The notes beneath the pieces were generated by a model. That model was not told the origin of the DNA. It did not search any database and worked only from the letters and a program-made list of their open reading frames with translations. From positions 1 to 38,859 of the forward strand of contig CAYSVS010000007.1 in NCBI GenBank assembly GCA_964434475.1: a stretch of DNA of 38,859 nt, read 5' to 3'. Shown here piece by piece: positions 5,268 through 38,755 of this stretch; position 1 is the stretch's first letter, and each line of letters starts with the position of its first letter. The stretch comes from an uncultured Methanosarcinales archaeon. GTDB lineage: Archaea; Nanobdellota; Nanobdellia; Woesearchaeales; CAYSVS01. The position numbers and the translations under genes are program-made.

Positions 5268-6032
5268 CTACTTGAACGTAGTTCCATCAAACTTCATCAC
5301 AAGCAGTTGGTTGTTCTGATCTTTTATGAATATGTAATTAAACATATGATCTGTTGAAACTGACCTAGGATCACGTTTCTCAACGCCTCTTGTAACATAA
5401 ATATTATTCAACTGAGGAAAATCTTCGCTTAGAACATATACTAATCCTTGAACAATGTTCGTCCTATCAGTACAGATTAATCCTTCCCATTTTGCACGGC
5501 AAAGCATTCCATGAAGGCTACTTTTCTTATCAATACCTAATCTTTTATAATATTCAGGATCTTTTAAAAACTCTTTTTTCCTATCAGGATCTTTAATCAT
5601 ATTTAGATAATCATTGAACAAAAGAGAATTGTGCATCTGCGCAACACCTGTCGCTCTTACAGGGTCATCAGGAACACCTTTTACATAATCCATAATTATC
5701 TTAAGTATATCAGTATATGATTTGTTTCTCATCCTTCTTTTTTTCAGTACATTATTATAGAAGAAATCCTTTACAAATTTTGCATCTTCATATTCCTCAT
5801 GAAACGCCTTTTCCAATCCTGCAGAATACTTAGGAGTTACTCCTTTGAGATCATCTAGGCTATCTATTTTTTTTGCATTGCCGTAAAAGTTAAGGATATT
5901 GTCAAATTCATTCATAACAAATTCAACACTCTCCACTTTATGTTTTGTTTTAACCGGCTCTTTAGCGTATAAACTATTCAAAGCGCCTAGTCCAATAAAT
6001 CCTGCCATTAGAGCATATTGTTTTATGTTCAT
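5268..6032 (-). CDS. Secreted protein with a putative transglutaminase-like Cys-His-Asp domain
   Basis: Signal peptide; GLICTDR, DHMFNYI and FDGT motifs in the order and spacing of the transglutaminase-like triad. Confidence 0.55.
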   Translation of the reverse strand: MNIKQYALMAGFIGLGALNSLYAKEPVKTKHKVESVEFVMNEFDNILNFYGNAKKIDSLDDLKGVTPKYSAGLEKAFHEEYEDAKFVKDFFYNNVLKKRRMRNKSYTDILKIIMDYVKGVPDDPVRATGVAQMHNSLLFNDYLNMIKDPDRKKEFLKDPEYYKRLGIDKKSSLHGMLCRAKWEGLICTDRTNIVQGLVYVLSEDFPQLNNIYVTRGVEKRDPRSVSTDHMFNYIFIKDQNNQLLVMKFDGTTFK

Positions 6033-28223: not shown

Positions 28224-28569
28224 TGGTAGGAAGATACTTTGCTTTCGGCTTATGCTGAGGAAAGTCCGTCCACAATCAAAAAGCCACTCGCAAGAGATCC
28301 TGAAAAGGATGGCAACCACTCAGAAACGACACTTCCTGTGGATAATGGAATGATGCGTGCGAAGAATCTGGTGACAGAAACAAGTTGCTCAAAAATGCAA
28401 GCATTTTTGGCACCACTCAAAGTGGTAACCCGCTGACGTCTCCACAGGGAAAGATTAAACGGTGAGCCCTGGCCTGTGCAATCCATTAAGGAGCTAAGTA
28501 TAATGCAAAGACAGTCTGTTTATGCTATGCGTAAAGACTGACAGAAGACGGCTTATACTCTTTCTACCA
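28224..28569 (+). ncRNA. rnpB: RNase P RNA
   Basis: GAGGAAAGTCCGTC and ACAGAAGACGGCTTA form P4; terminal P1 TGGTAGGAAGA/TCTTTCTACCA; P2 CTTTGC/GCAAAG; CAGAAAC and AAACGG specificity-domain motifs. Confidence 0.93.
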
Positions 28570-31387: not shown

Positions 31388-31480
31388 ACCTATGTCTTGG
31401 GTTTGTGATATCATGGGTTTTTCAACACAAAGGTTTTTTACAAAACATTTATAAGTAAATTCTTTCTGCTTTCATCTCAT

Positions 31481-31592
31481 GGCGACCGTAGTGTAACGGT
31501 TAGCATTGAGGTCTGTGGAAGCGCAAATATGAGAGTTGATCTCTCAGCGCTGCTGATAACCTTAGGAGCGAGTTCGACTCTCGCCGGTCGCC
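31481..31592 (+). tRNA. tRNA-His(GTG) with encoded G-1 and a 39-nt intron at 37/38 (31519-31557)
   Basis: G + GCGACCG/CGGTCGC + C73; anticodon stem GAGGT/ACCTT with loop CTGTGG^A; GTTCGACT T-loop; intron stems AGCGC/GCGCT and TGAGAG/CTCTCA; TATA TTTATAA near 31448. Confidence 0.93.
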
Positions 31593-31675
31593 CTTTCTTT
31601 ATCAAAAATAAAAAAGGATCCAACCAATAGAAATTCCTGAAATCTGATTTCCGGATAAAGATATTGTGCATCACC

Positions 31676-31690
31676 CGAAACATTTATAAA
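31676..31690 (+). promoter_or_regulatory. BRE/TATA promoter of the rps13 operon (predicted)
   Basis: CCGAAACATTTATAAA matches the purine-rich BRE plus TTTATAAA pattern seen before other genes here (e.g. near 27872 and 31443). Confidence 0.6.
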
Positions 31691-31714
31691 CAAACATATT
31701 TTCTCAAGAACATA

Positions 31715-31830
31715 CATAGTGTCGTATCAATTAGTGTTGGTATGATCAAAGAATCGCAGCTAGTAAGGGACTGTGACATTATGGAATTACACTTTCATAA
31801 TTCTATAATGTAATCTAACCTTGGAGGTTT
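31715..31830 (+). promoter_or_regulatory. Putative structured 5' leader of the rps13 operon
   Basis: Several stems with G-U pairs valid only on the + strand, including mutually exclusive helices (see findings). Confidence 0.55.
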
Positions 31831-31835
31831 TATTC

Positions 31836-32297
31836 ATGGAAAAAGGCAATAAAGAATTTAGGCATATCGTCAGGGTAGTCAACACTGACCTGGACGGAAA
31901 TAAAAAAATAGGCCAGGCTCTAACAAAGATAAAAGGAGTAAGCTTCATGTATGCTAATGCAATATGCAAGCTTGCAGGAATAGACAGAAATCAGAAAACA
32001 GGAGATATGGGCGACGAACAAGTAGATAAACTAGATGAAGTTATAAAAAATCCTATAAAGTTCAAGGTTCCTATATGGATGATGAACAGAAGAAATGAAC
32101 CTGAAACAGGAGCAGATACACATCTAGTATCTTCAGACGTAGTTTTTGTACAGGATAATGATGTAAAAAGCCTGAAAAAGATGAAATGCTACAGAGGATT
32201 CAGACATATTGACGGACTGCCTTGCAGAGGTCAAAGGACAAAAAGTAATTTCAGAAGGAACAAAAGCAAACTTACAGGCAGAAAAAGAAAAAAATAA
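31836..32297 (+). CDS. rps13: 30S ribosomal protein uS13
   Basis: FRHIVRVVNTDLDG, ALTKIKGV, WMMNRR, YRGFRH..GLPCRGQRTKSNFR; SD GGAGG. Confidence 0.97.
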   Translation: MEKGNKEFRHIVRVVNTDLDGNKKIGQALTKIKGVSFMYANAICKLAGIDRNQKTGDMGDEQVDKLDEVIKNPIKFKVPIWMMNRRNEPETGADTHLVSSDVVFVQDNDVKSLKKMKCYRGFRHIDGLPCRGQRTKSNFRRNKSKLTGRKRKK

Positions 32298-32309
32298 AGG
32301 TTGATAATC

Positions 32310-32882
32310 ATGGGAGATCCAAGAAGAACAAGATCAAAAATCCAAACACCTTCACATCCTTGGAACAAAGGAAGAGTTGAGGAAGAAAAACAATTATTGA
32401 GAGAATACGGACTAAAGAACAAGAAAGAGATATGGAAGATGAACTCAGTAGTAGACAGCATGGCTAAACAAGCAAAACATCTTATCGCATTAAGAACAAG
32501 TCAAGCAGAGATAGAAAGAAAACAGCTTCTGCAAAGGGCCCAAAGATTAGGATTGATAGGCCAGAATTCAGTTTTGGAAGATATTCTTGACCTAAAAATA
32601 AAAGATGTGCTTGAAAGAAGACTGCAGACAATAATATTCAGAAAAAATCTTGCAAGATCCATGAAACAGTCAAGACAATTCATAGTGCACGGACATGTCC
32701 AGATAAATGGAAAAAAACTGACAGTACCTTCATACATAGTCCCAGTGAAAGAAGAGAACACATTAACATTCGTCGATAACTCGAGCTTAAGCGATGAAGA
32801 GCATCCTGAAAGAAAAATAGAAGAAAAGGAAGAAGTTAAAGCAGAGGACGAAAAAGAATCTAAGGAAGGTGAAGAAAAATGA
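32310..32882 (+). CDS. rps4: 30S ribosomal protein uS4
   Basis: [36 protein letters not shown]. Confidence 0.97.
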
Positions 32883-33316
32883 AAAATACAAAACCTTCAA
32901 GCAATAAAAGACCGCAAAGAAAAAGAGGTCCTTTGAAATGGGGTGTAGCTCACATATATGCATCTTACAACAATACTATAATACACATCACAGATATAAC
33001 TGGAACAGAGACAATTACAAGAACATCGGGCGGCATGGTCGTTAAACAGGACAGGTTAGAAAGTTCACCTACTGCAGCTATGATGGCCGCTAAAAAAGCA
33101 GCAGAAACAGCAAGAGAACATGGGATAAATGCCATACATGTAAAGATAAAAGCGCCAGGAGGACACAACGGCCCTAACAACCCAGGACCAGGAGCACAGG
33201 CAGCAGTAAGAGCACTATCAAGGATGGGATTAAAAATTGGAGTGATCGAAGATGTTACGCCAATTCCTCACGACGGATGCAGAAAAAAAGGCGGAAGAAG
33301 AGGAAGGAGAGTATAA
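32879..33316 (+). CDS. rps11: 30S ribosomal protein uS11
   Basis: [44 protein letters not shown]. Confidence 0.98.
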
Positions 33317-33318
33317 AA

Positions 33319-34110
33319 ATGGAAATTGAAACGCTTAAAACAAAAGACAAAAACACATCATCTTTTATTTTAAAAAAAAGCACACCAGGCTTCGCTAACG
33401 CATTAAGAAGAACCATGATAAATGAAGTACCTGCTATGGCCATAGACACAGTAGAGATTTCCAAAAACTCAGGCATCTTATATGACGAGATGGTCGCACA
33501 GAGGCTAGGATTGGTAGTTCTTAAGACTGATCTTAAATCATACAATCTACCTGATAAATGCTCATGCAACGGAGAAGGGTGCGCACAATGCCAGCTCAAG
33601 CTTACATTAAAAGCGAAAGGGCCAGGATATGTACATGCTTCAGACATAAAAAGCCAGGATCCTAAAGTCAAACCAGTGCATGAAAACGCCATAATAACGA
33701 AACTTACAAAAGGACAAGAGATTGAGCTTGAAGCTACCGCAATACTTGGAAAAGGCAAAGAACATGCGAAGTTCTCTCCAGGATTGGTGTTCTACAAACA
33801 TCCTGCCAACATAAAAATAAAGAATCCAAACAAGGATGTGGAAGATACAGTAAAATCCTGCCCTCTTAACATACTAGAGGAAAAAAAAGGAAAGATTACA
33901 GTCAACACAGATAAACTAAAAACATGCCATCTTTGTCTATCTTGTCAGGAAGAGAGTAAAAACAATGTGACAGTGACAGAAGAAAAAGAGAATTTTATTT
34001 TTACAATCGAAAGATGGGGACAATTAGACGCAAAGACAATAACAAAAAGAGCTGCAGAAATAATAGAAGATAAATGCGATGATTTTTCAGCCAAGCTCAG
34101 CGAAATTTAA
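33319..34110 (+). CDS. rpoD: DNA-directed RNA polymerase subunit D (Rpo3)
   Basis: FANALRR..EVPAMAI, LYDEMVAQRLGL, CSC..GCAQC, GKGKEHAKF, ferredoxin-like CHLCLSC. Confidence 0.96.
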   Translation: MEIETLKTKDKNTSSFILKKSTPGFANALRRTMINEVPAMAIDTVEISKNSGILYDEMVAQRLGLVVLKTDLKSYNLPDKCSCNGEGCAQCQLKLTLKAKGPGYVHASDIKSQDPKVKPVHENAIITKLTKGQEIELEATAILGKGKEHAKFSPGLVFYKHPANIKIKNPNKDVEDTVKSCPLNILEEKKGKITVNTDKLKTCHLCLSCQEESKNNVTVTEEKENFIFTIERWGQLDAKTITKRAAEIIEDKCDDFSAKLSEI

Positions 34111-34152
34111 ACTTTGCGAGCGCTAAAGCGCGCGTCAGTGGAGGAATAAAAA

Positions 34153-34509
34153 ATGAGAACAAAACCAACAAACAAAAATTTGATAAGGCTTATAGATGAA
34201 CTGAAAACTTTGTCCAGAAAACAGGAAGTGAGTATCTGGAAAAGGGTAGCAAATGATCTGTCAAAGCCTTCAAGAAATAGAAGAGAAGTTAACATCTCAA
34301 AGATCAATAGATATACAAAGGAAAATGAAACTATAGTGGTGCCTGGAAAAATACTAAGCATGGGCGAACTTGACCACAAAGTTAATGTCGCAGCATGGAC
34401 TTTTTCAGACTCTGCTAAAAAGAAGATAGATGCTAAAGGCAAAGCGATGACTATCACAGAATTGACAGAACAAAATCCAAAAGGAAGCAAAGTGAGGATA
34501 ATAGGGTGA
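34153..34509 (+). CDS. rpl18e: 50S ribosomal protein eL18
   Basis: IWKRVA..L.KP.R.R.EVNISKI, VVPGKILS.G, FS.SA..KI, NPKG. Confidence 0.96.
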   Translation: MRTKPTNKNLIRLIDELKTLSRKQEVSIWKRVANDLSKPSRNRREVNISKINRYTKENETIVVPGKILSMGELDHKVNVAAWTFSDSAKKKIDAKGKAMTITELTEQNPKGSKVRIIG

Positions 34510-34928
34510 ATAATATGATTATCGATGCTAAAGGATTAATATTAGGAAGGATGGCAGCTTTTGCTGCTGAGCAAGCTTTGCTTGGACAGGATATAGCTAT
34601 AATAAACTGCGATAAAGCAGTAATTTCGGGCACAAAAAACCAAGTGGTTGAAAAGTACAAGCAGAAGAGAAGCAGAGGAGAACCAAGCCACGGACCCCAT
34701 GTTCCAAGAAGGTCAGACTTAATGGTCAAAAGAACAATAAGAGGCATGCTGCCTTACAAAACACCAAGAGGAGCTGAAGCTTTCAAGAAAATCAAATGTT
34801 ATCTTGGCGAACCAGAAGATGTAAAAGGAGAAGCTGTAATAATTAAGAAAGCTAAAGCAGAAAAACTCCCTAACTTAAAATATGTTGAAGTTGGAGAAAT
34901 AAGCAAGATTATGGGGGCTAAACAATGA
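34506..34928 (+). CDS. rpl13: 50S ribosomal protein uL13
   Basis: IIDA.GLILGRMA, GP..PR, KRTIRGMLPYK..RG. Confidence 0.96.
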   Translation: MNNMIIDAKGLILGRMAAFAAEQALLGQDIAIINCDKAVISGTKNQVVEKYKQKRSRGEPSHGPHVPRRSDLMVKRTIRGMLPYKTPRGAEAFKKIKCYLGEPEDVKGEAVIIKKAKAEKLPNLKYVEVGEISKIMGAKQ

Positions 34929-35323
34929 AAGTCATTTGCACTACAGGAAAAAGGAAGACAGCTATTGCAAAAGCAAGGCTTAAGGAAGGCACAGGCATTA
35001 TCAGATTCAACAATAAATTGCTTGATACTGTAGAGCCTGATCTGATGAGGCTTAAATTAGCTGAACCTTTGATACTAACTGAAAAGATAAAGGACAAAGT
35101 AGATATAAGCGTCAAAGTAACAGGCGGCGGTATGATGAGTCAAATAGAAGCTGCAAGATTAGCTATAGCAAGAGCGATAGTAGAATACACAAAAGACGAC
35201 AAAATAAAAAACATGTTCCTGGATTATGACAGGCACCTATTAGTCGCTGATGTGAGAAGAAAAGAGATGTACAAGCCAAACGATTCAAAAGCAAGAGCCA
35301 AAAGGCAGAAATCCTACAGGTGA
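34925..35323 (+). CDS. rps9: 30S ribosomal protein uS9
   Basis: GKRKTAIA, V.GGG..SQ, YDRHLLVADVRRKE, ARAKRQKSYR. Confidence 0.97.
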   Translation: MKVICTTGKRKTAIAKARLKEGTGIIRFNNKLLDTVEPDLMRLKLAEPLILTEKIKDKVDISVKVTGGGMMSQIEAARLAIARAIVEYTKDDKIKNMFLDYDRHLLVADVRRKEMYKPNDSKARAKRQKSYR

Positions 35324-35329
35324 ACAAAG

Positions 35330-35527
35330 ATGATTATACCTATAAGATGTTTTTCATGCGGAAAGCCTATTTCACAGCTTTGGGAAGAATACTCAACGAG
35401 GATAGAAAGAGGCGAACAGCCAAAAAAAGTGATGGATGATCTTGGCTTGACAAGATACTGCTGCAGAAGTATATTCCTATCACAGATTGAGCTGATAGAT
35501 ACTGCTGCTAAGTTCAAGAAATTTTAG
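35330..35527 (+). CDS. rpoN: DNA-directed RNA polymerase subunit N (Rpo10)
   Basis: MIIPIRCFSCGK...LG..RYCCR. Confidence 0.97.
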   Translation: MIIPIRCFSCGKPISQLWEEYSTRIERGEQPKKVMDDLGLTRYCCRSIFLSQIELIDTAAKFKKF

Positions 35528-38482: not shown

Positions 38483-38755
38483 GGAAAGGCACGCCAGAAG
38501 GTGGATACAAAAGATATACACTGGCAACCCTAAGCTTTCCTCCACTCCGCTACCCTTAAAGCACCAACACTCTAAATTAAGGCTGCTTCATTCCTGATCT
38601 GACCTGATTCTCTAAAATATCGGTCAATAAGGACAGAGCTTCAATGTACGACTCAAGACCAATGTTTATCTCCTATACCGCTCTTCCGGCTTTCCTCCAT
38701 CATATAGCCCATTTATGGTTACAGGCAGGGGCTAACTACCCAGCTACACCTTTCC
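38483..38755 (-). ncRNA. ffs: Signal recognition particle RNA (large, with Alu domain)
   Basis: Minus strand has helix 8 GGTCAGATCAGGAATGAAGCAGCC (SRP54 site, GGAA loop), Alu TGTAA motif with complementary loops TAGCCC/GGGCTA, and terminal helix GGAAAGGTGT/GTGCCTTTCC. Confidence 0.92.

Follow-up and report, generated by a model that had tools for sequence, protein, structure and literature searches.

A conserved four-way-junction leader RNA upstream of the archaeal S13-S4-S11-RpoD operon

The rps13 operon and its upstream region

[quoted passage not shown] Open reading frames and Pfam matches identify the encoded proteins as uS13 (31836-32297), uS4 (32310-32882), uS11 (32879-33316), the Rpb3-like subunit RpoD (33319-34110), eL18 (34153-34509), uL13 (34506-34928), uS9 (34925-35323) and RpoN (35330-35527), all of which are located on the + strand. 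The ATG of rps13 lies at 31836 and not at 31835/37. The uS4 protein possesses a long, acidic C-terminal tail, which is rich in lysine and glutamate. The spacer between rpoD and rpl18e is AT-rich apart from a GC-rich stretch at 34112-34140 (+), and folding of the surrounding segment 34100-34158 is no better than that of shuffled sequences (z -0.28).

The leader comprises about 120 untranslated nucleotides between the TATA box of the operon and the rps13 ATG, 5' of the S13-S4-S11-RpoD cluster. The promoter can be read from the sequence as a TATA box, UUUAUAAA, at 31683-31690 (+). Archaeal TATA boxes are centred near position -26/-27, and from this promoter rule we infer a transcription start at around 31713-31716. 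Several other genes of the window have a TATA-like box approximately 30-35 nt 5' of their ATG, for example those with ATGs at 102, 8165, 18491 and 29155 on the + strand and at 6032 and 14395 on the - strand, and leaderless mRNAs seem to be common in this genome. Because the neighbouring genes look leaderless, the S13 leader of 121 nt stands out, a contrast which had already been drawn in the first-pass annotation of this DNA and which these boxes support.

On its 5' side, the leader region is flanked by an intron-bearing tRNA-His gene, and on its 3' side by rps13. The tRNA-His gene (GUG; 31482-31592, +) contains an intron of 39 nt and is recognized by the Rfam tRNA model with 46.3 bits; ARAGORN detects it with the option -i and overlooks it without the intron mode. 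A separate TATA box at 31448-31455, closely resembling that of the rps13 operon, precedes it, and a tRNA-His gene is found just 5' of rps13 in several relatives, too. Furthermore, the window encodes an archaeal RNase P RNA (28226-28567, +; 132.8 bits) and an SRP RNA (38483-38755, -; 129.9 bits).

A four-way junction conserved among relatives

The first-pass annotation had proposed that the leader RNA contains three hairpins, A, B and C, an alternative pairing that closes a three-way junction and excludes hairpin C, and a small stem around the Shine-Dalgarno (SD) sequence. All of the strings and hairpins that it named could be located (hairpin A at 31721-31746, B at 31754-31776 and C at 31776-31811), and the minimum free energy (MFE) fold of the window leader consists of the full hairpin A, hairpin B and the 14-bp hairpin C. 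On the + strand, the segment 31710-31842 reaches an MFE of -34.7 kcal/mol, compared to -23.95 +/- 3.5 kcal/mol for 200 dinucleotide shuffles (z -3.07; 1 of 200 shuffles equally good), whereas a z of -0.42 was obtained for the - strand of the same segment, with 62 of 200 shuffles being equally good. Strand-specific folding is expected because of the G-U pairs, and the earlier argument that these pairs indicate a structure at the RNA level is borne out by this asymmetry. Among the modelled folds of the window, the bare junction described below together with the upper part of hairpin C has an energy of -19.4 kcal/mol and the fold with hairpins A, B and C one of -25.6 kcal/mol, while the overall minimum is the -34.7 kcal/mol given above.

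Seventeen leaders of the four-way-junction type were collected, each of which is located directly upstream of rps13 on the sense strand. They derive from the window, two genomes of the same genus, three genomes of other families (G036, G040 and G125), all ten genomes of the family f89 and one metagenome contig. The fold that is conserved in these leaders differs from the MFE fold and corresponds to the alternative pairing of the first-pass annotation, in which CAUAGUGUC (31715-31723) pairs with GACAUUAUG (31775-31783); it is this alternative that evolution has maintained. The conserved fold is a four-way junction consisting of helix P1, a shortened helix A, a new helix A' and a helix B of 4 bp, with zero unpaired bases between the helices. 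The junction has four ways and not three, as had been suggested, because of helix A', which was absent from the earlier description.

The 5' strand of P1 (CAUAGUGUC, 31715-31723, +) lies at the very beginning of the predicted transcript and pairs with 31775-31783. The 3' strand of P1, in the following referred to as the mid strand (GACAUUAUG, 31775-31783, +), has two possible partners, the P1 5' strand and positions 31804-31811, and starts with GAC/GGC-AU in all members. P1 has a length of 7-11 bp in 14 of 15 parsed leaders and of 3 bp in the other one (L002); in an alignment of 16 sequences, 8 of its 9 pairs vary on both sides, and the inner three pairs are canonical in 48/48 cells. Helix A (GUAUCAAU/GUUGGUAU, 31724-31743, +) consists of 8 bp, including three G-U pairs, and is closed by the loop UAGU; all seven modelled pairs vary on both sides, in the 10- and 16-sequence alignments alike. 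Thus far, hairpin A of the first-pass annotation is retained: its upper 8 bp are kept, whereas the three bottom pairs (GUC/GAU), which form the rival base of the hairpin, are canonical in only 38/48 cells and are lost when the sequence changes, and the full hairpin is not under selection. The bases concerned are instead found in helix A' (GAU/AUC, 31744-31755, +; strands 31744-46/31753-55), a helix of 3 bp with the loop CAAAGA, which is canonical in 47/48 cells and covaries to GAA/UUC, AAU/AUU, AAC/GUU, GGC/GCC and UUU/AAA. Helix B (GCAG/CUGU, 31756-31774, +; strands 31756-59/31771-74) has 4 bp and an 11-nt loop; 60/64 cells are canonical and three of the four pairs vary on both sides (e.g., GCGG/CCGU, GCAC/GUGU). 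Its junction pair is G-U in the window and in 12 of the 16 sequences overall. The junction is directly followed by the upper part of hairpin C (GAAUUA/UAAUUC, 31784-31803, +), which comprises 6 bp and the loop CACUUUCA and carries the conserved motif UUCU on its 3' side (31801-31804); five of the six pairs vary on both sides in the 16-sequence alignment. The 3' strand of lower hairpin C (UAUAAUGU, 31804-31811, +) rivals the P1 5' strand for the mid strand. Across relatives, P1 is kept together with the upper 8 bp of A, the four central pairs of B and upper hairpin C; the conserved bases are those of the helices beside the junction, and the loops of A, A' and B differ from leader to leader in both sequence and length.

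In the alignment of 10 sequences, 93.2% of the cells are paired, compared to 73.5 +/- 1.6% after shuffling, and 22 of 29 pairs vary on both sides; none of 500 shuffles reaches any of these measures, and sliding the partners by 1-3 columns lowers the pairing to 33-49%. In the alignment of 16 sequences, which is alignment A6 minus five reverse-strand rows, 90.2% of the cells are paired, compared to 67.3% after shuffling (maximum 71.9% in 1000 shuffles), and 26 of 29 pairs vary on both sides; these pair counts come from alignments fitted to the structure by a covariance model, and the 16 sequences represent about 5-6 lineages and are therefore not independent. For distant members, a covariance model of the junction (R2) scores higher than one resembling the MFE fold (R1), as seen for L079 (38.3 vs 29.8 bits), L087 (33.4 vs 27.3 bits) and L016 (16.1 vs 11.2 bits). 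The check proposed in the first-pass annotation, conservation and covariation of the structure in relatives, was hence positive in both alignments, and the secondary structure of the leader is conserved and supported by covariation, as is demanded of ribosomal-protein leaders. The leader is a genuine, conserved and strand-specific RNA-level structure of the S13-S4-S11-RpoD operon.

It could be argued that there is no functional RNA at this position and that the pairing reflects a chance fold of an AT-rich spacer or a DNA palindrome serving as operator for a transcription factor. Hairpin C is indeed a near-perfect inverted repeat of 14 bp, and the reverse strand is weakly matched by the covariance models. 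However, only the + strand folds better than its shuffles, the G-U pairs are kept, and 26/29 pairs are compensatory across families whose S13 proteins are 44-65% identical to that of the window. Covariation and strand asymmetry together make this explanation very unlikely, and we give it almost no credence.

The same TATA 8-mer as in the window precedes the first base of P1 by 24-34 nt in 11 of 15 related leaders; in the remaining four, the upstream sequence is too short or the box was not seen. From this spacing and the promoter rule, P1 is predicted to start with the first transcribed base or no more than a few bases from it. Additional pairings of UUCU with the GAAUC linker or with loop B, which were noted by eye, are inconsistent across families and were discarded. 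A small upstream open reading frame starting at AUG 31781 (31781-31813, +) would encode 10 codons (MELHFHNSIM) and end at the foot of hairpin C; it is probably non-coding, since the AUG within the mid strand is absent from L005, L018, L016, L084 and L087.

Distribution of the leader and its counterpart in sister families

S13 is present in 40 of 41 related genomes, the genome of the window included. Thirty upstream loci, nearly all of which come from different families, were compared: five carry a leader of the window type, namely L001 (the window), L005 and L018 (same genus), L016 (G036) and L002 (G040), 24 carry a different leader, termed type M, and one (L025) carries neither. L025, from genome G006, is the sole sampled rps13 locus lacking both types; its TATA box and ATG are separated by 89 nt. 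Each genome with a four-way-junction leader has one copy, and in 16 loci the leader is succeeded by S13, S4 and S11, in this order; the contig of L070 stops inside S4.

When 151 genomes of the order were searched with R1, the covariance model built from the four closest sequences, two weak matches were obtained (E 0.1 and 0.24). The two are located immediately 5' of rps13, and one of them belongs to family f89, where 10/10 genomes have a leader of this architecture. The final model R3 found the leader at rps13 in 4 of the 151 order genomes sampled, along with one weak match elsewhere in G008; a sample of 150 further genomes from the class yielded no leader. When GTDB representative genomes were scanned with a strict pattern, 13 loci were returned, three of them with S13, and all three are members that were already known. 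The same scan of metagenome contigs returned 29 loci, two of which lie before S13; one duplicates L018 and the other one is new (L070), with an S13 that is 65% identical to that of the window. The other 37 pattern loci have no S13 in their flanks and were taken as chance matches, and the ten from genomes bear bacterial titles. In the genomes searched, the RNA family was encountered in a few families of one DPANN-like archaeal order. In a tree of S13+S4+S11, which is poorly resolved, the leader type occurs in three to four patches, and judged from these sequences the four-way-junction leader may have a single origin.

The type M leader is a different and much more widespread, likewise undescribed rps13 leader, which occurs in 24 of the 30 sampled loci and, in addition, in L080. 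Its consensus reads (A)GCC-CGAGU-[variable hairpin]-GCG-N2-10-UAGGG(Y)U, after which come a hairpin and UUCU; examples are L003:1374-1446, L004:1423-1500, L006:1379-1488, L008:1394-1494 and L022:1367-1443, plus 20 further loci. The CCC/GGG closing helix covaries, with U-A in L013 and L030, and the fourth pair is G-U in 13, A-U in 6 and G-C in 5 leaders; in 25/25 leaders, UUCU follows at a distance of 0-34 nt. Type M has no match in Rfam, and no description of it was found in the literature. Both leader types occupy the same place, beginning some 25 nt 3' of the TATA box that serves the rps13 operon, and both combine a 5' strand with a purine-rich mid strand, a hairpin and UUCU. However, the core of type M is a stem with an asymmetric internal loop, whereas the window leader is a four-way junction. 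The type M core CCGAGU...GCG...AGGG is absent from the window leader, and the models R1-R3 have no match at type M loci. Mimicry of rRNA by type M was considered and rejected: the consensus matches the 16S rRNA of the window organism at 523-549, as do 38 of 5000 shuffles, but the pattern is absent from the corresponding 16S rRNA region of three relatives, two of which (G017 and G027) carry type M.

Within family f89, a sub-variant of the four-way-junction leader is found at L081:1398-1487 and L082:1260-1359, in which P1 ends with ACC/GGU or GCC/GGC, helix A' reads AAC/GUU or AAU/AUU and helix B reads GCAC/GUGU. Since their 5' strand (AUAGCC in L082) resembles that of type M, these two leaders may bridge both types.

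Competing folds, candidate ligands and relation to known leaders

In all 14 leaders folded at full length, the MFE fold uses the mid strand in the long hairpin C and not in P1, and with P1 forced, the best fold is less stable by 3.5-9.2 kcal/mol. For a nascent RNA extending 8 nt beyond the mid strand, the MFE fold contains most of the P1 pairs in 12 of 14 leaders. Folding of P1 in the nascent RNA and the stability of hairpin C in the full-length RNA lead to the prediction that the junction forms first and is later displaced. In each member, either partner can pair with the mid strand, and differences of the mid strand between families (AUGGA, AUCA, AUUAG, UAUAGG) are matched by changes in the two partners; the incompatibility of P1 and hairpin C, which had been noted for the window, thereby extends to all members. 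The pairing of the mid strand with the 3' strand exceeds that of shuffled mid strands in 13 of 14 leaders, with single-sequence fractions of 0.015-0.745. An identity-based swap test on the second state, which used the longest common substring, gave no discrimination. Selection on the second state, i.e., the long hairpin C, is weakly supported, and because the statistics for this state are weak, a switch between P1 and hairpin C is plausible on the basis of the modelled folds, and not proven.

A connection of such a switch to the ribosome-binding site was not found. The small stem AACCU-UGG-AGGUU (31817-31829, +), which surrounds the SD sequence GGAGG (31823-31827), is present in the window as annotated; it is not conserved in relatives, being absent in L005 and leaving the SD sequence in a loop in L018 and L070, and it is not under selection. 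With its 3' end at 31803/31811, the conserved structure stops at least 12 nt before the SD sequence (31823-27), so that the SD sequence and the ATG at 31836 lie outside. The distance between P1 and the ATG ranges from 98 to 230 nt across leaders, which makes it unlikely that the start site is simply occluded. Between modelled free, P1-forced and 5'-strand-blocked ensembles of 14 leaders, accessibility of the ribosome-binding site (-16..+3) showed no consistent change. Taken together, the earlier interpretation stands as far as a conserved, structured leader at the RNA level is concerned, and has to be given up for the three-way junction, the full hairpin A and the SD stem.

A ligand-independent role would be in line with part of these data. 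The leader could be a structural element in which P1 shields the mRNA from decay that depends on the 5' end or sets a constant level of translation, and which senses nothing. P1 takes the first transcribed bases in the 11 leaders with a placeable TATA box, the accessibility of the ribosome-binding site is unchanged between the folds, and the 16S rRNA provides no clue to a ligand. However, a plain 5' hairpin would suffice for protection, whereas here four helices meet without an unpaired base, the pairs next to the junction are conserved in sequence, and the competing pairing exists in all members. We therefore regard a purely structural role as unlikely.

The fixed place in front of a ribosomal-protein operon, the single copy per genome, the conserved junction pairs and the replacement by another leader in sister families suggest a regulatory leader that binds a protein, and the location of the conserved bases beside the junction, combined with variable loops, is in keeping with recognition by a protein rather than by a small molecule. 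With moderate confidence, we propose that 31715-31811 is the 5' leader RNA of an undescribed family, which most likely is an autoregulatory ribosomal-protein leader with uS4 as the candidate ligand. The protein uS4, whose binding site in 16S rRNA is a multi-helix junction, acts in bacteria as repressor of the S13-S11-S4-RpoA-L17 operon via the rpsM leader; by analogy with this operon and with junction binding in 16S rRNA, uS4 is our best guess for the ligand. The leader shares 20 7-mers, 7 8-mers and 3 9-mers with the 16S rRNA of the organism, compared to 10.3, 2.7 and 0.7 for shuffled sequences; these shared k-mers are scattered and amount to 2-4 times the shuffled expectation, so that we do not claim any rRNA mimicry from them, and the 23S rRNA is absent from the assembly.

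The leader might also be regulatory and respond to a ligand other than uS4, i.e., uS13, uS11, uS9, uL13, eL18, RpoD/RpoN or a general RNA-binding protein such as L7Ae. The operon encodes eight candidates, uL13 autoregulates its own operon in E. coli, and the eukaryotic homologue of uS11 binds its own pre-mRNA, all of which counts for such a ligand. On the other hand, tandem G-A pairs of the kind found in K-turns were not seen in the leader, the first pair of helix A being G-U, U-A, G-G or U-U. This explanation overlaps with the favoured one, and the present data do not separate these proteins from uS4; we consider it improbable.

For the favoured uS4-type leader, a mechanism can be outlined. 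The junction would form first, during transcription, and a ribosomal protein encoded by the operon would bind it when present in excess over rRNA. We infer that the bound protein would lock P1. In the absence of the protein, the 3' strand of hairpin C would displace the 5' strand, and the RNA would relax to the more stable long-hairpin fold. Depending on the fold adopted, translation of the mRNA or its stability would then differ, and expression of the operon would be affected. In its boldest form, the proposal is that of a bistable, co-transcriptional switch at the 5' end, in which free ribosomal protein locks the junction and the 3' arm of hairpin C resets it without protein. Since subunits D and N of RNA polymerase are products of this operon as well, such a sensor would couple the output of ribosomes and RNA polymerase in a DPANN archaeon with a reduced genome. 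Taken with the unrelated type M leader of most sister families, it would be the first riboregulation described for the S13/S4 operon of archaea, and a single order would have arrived at a solution at least twice. We put this version forward as a tentative and rather doubtful one.

Two mutually exclusive folds of similar modelled stability, of which the junction comes first in the nascent RNA, would likewise be compatible with a riboswitch or thermometer that responds to a small molecule, an ion or temperature. Kinetically controlled riboswitch platforms follow the same logic, in that an early structure and a more stable later one compete for a common strand. In contrast to these platforms, the leader has no evident pocket for a small molecule, and neither a terminator nor a helix sequestering the SD sequence is coupled to it. 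Conserved unpaired nucleotides that could build a pocket are missing, since no base of the junction is single-stranded and the loops are variable, and there is no match to an Rfam riboswitch. Ribosomal-protein operons are not known to be riboswitch targets in archaea, and we assign very little weight to this possibility.

A cmscan search against Rfam 15 at gathering thresholds gave no match to the leader, neither in the window nor in 12 related loci, in agreement with the novelty suggested in the first-pass annotation. At E values up to 10, the region 31600-31900 gave three unrelated matches below threshold, with 16.9, 15.6 and 13.2 bits compared to cut-offs of 90.8, 45 and 43. ARAGORN and the Rfam tRNA model detected no tRNA in 31715-31835. 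The consensus sequences of snoRNA boxes C and D are RUGAUGA and CUGA, respectively; the best match to a box C/D snoRNA scored 13.2 bits, compared to the cut-off of 43.

The closest functional parallel is the bacterial rpsM leader (Alpha_RBS), which is bound by uS4 and likewise precedes the first gene of the homologous operon, the latter comprising S13, S4, S11 and the RpoA-like subunit RpoD in the organism studied here. A multi-helix RNA with alternative folds, as found in both systems, is the platform expected for a ribosomal protein that binds a junction in 16S rRNA. However, Alpha_RBS has no match here even at E up to 10, and it forms a pseudoknot, whereas the archaeal leader forms a four-way junction. 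Moreover, the ribosome-binding site of rpsM lies inside the pseudoknot, whereas the structure described here stops at least 12 nt before the SD sequence and excludes the start codon; its host is an archaeon, and uS4 is only a candidate ligand.

In the archaea, Eckert & Weinberg (2020) name two ribosomal-protein leader candidates for S15, one for eL15 and one for L4 (PMC7247131). Among the candidates listed there, to which the supplements could add others, none belongs to the S13/S4 operon and none comes from DPANN lineages (PMC7247131). Like the leader described here, these are cis-acting, covariation-supported and lineage-restricted structures in 5' UTRs of archaeal ribosomal-protein genes, but they belong to other operons, have other folds and are present in Rfam, with none matching here (PMC7247131). 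As these authors also point out, distinct RNA structures can serve one ribosomal protein in different lineages (PMC7247131). A further paper, PMC13556214, has no bearing on the leader. Full-text searches of the literature returned no archaeal leader of an S13/S4 operon and no description of structured RNAs from DPANN archaea. Because of the missing Rfam match and the lack of a published description, the leader is taken to be a structurally new ribosomal-protein leader outside the described families.

In bacteria, it is textbook knowledge that ribosomal-protein operons are under feedback control through structured mRNA leaders. In archaea, feedback of this kind is barely charted, and the leader adds a well-supported new fold at the 5' end of a transcript. 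Since this fold precedes the archaeal counterpart of the bacterial alpha operon, the existence of S4-type autoregulation in archaea is now a question for the bench. The competing long hairpin provides a defined model for an RNA switch that is set kinetically. Moreover, at least two unrelated conserved leaders in front of the same operon within one order offer a natural comparison for the replacement of regulators in evolution.
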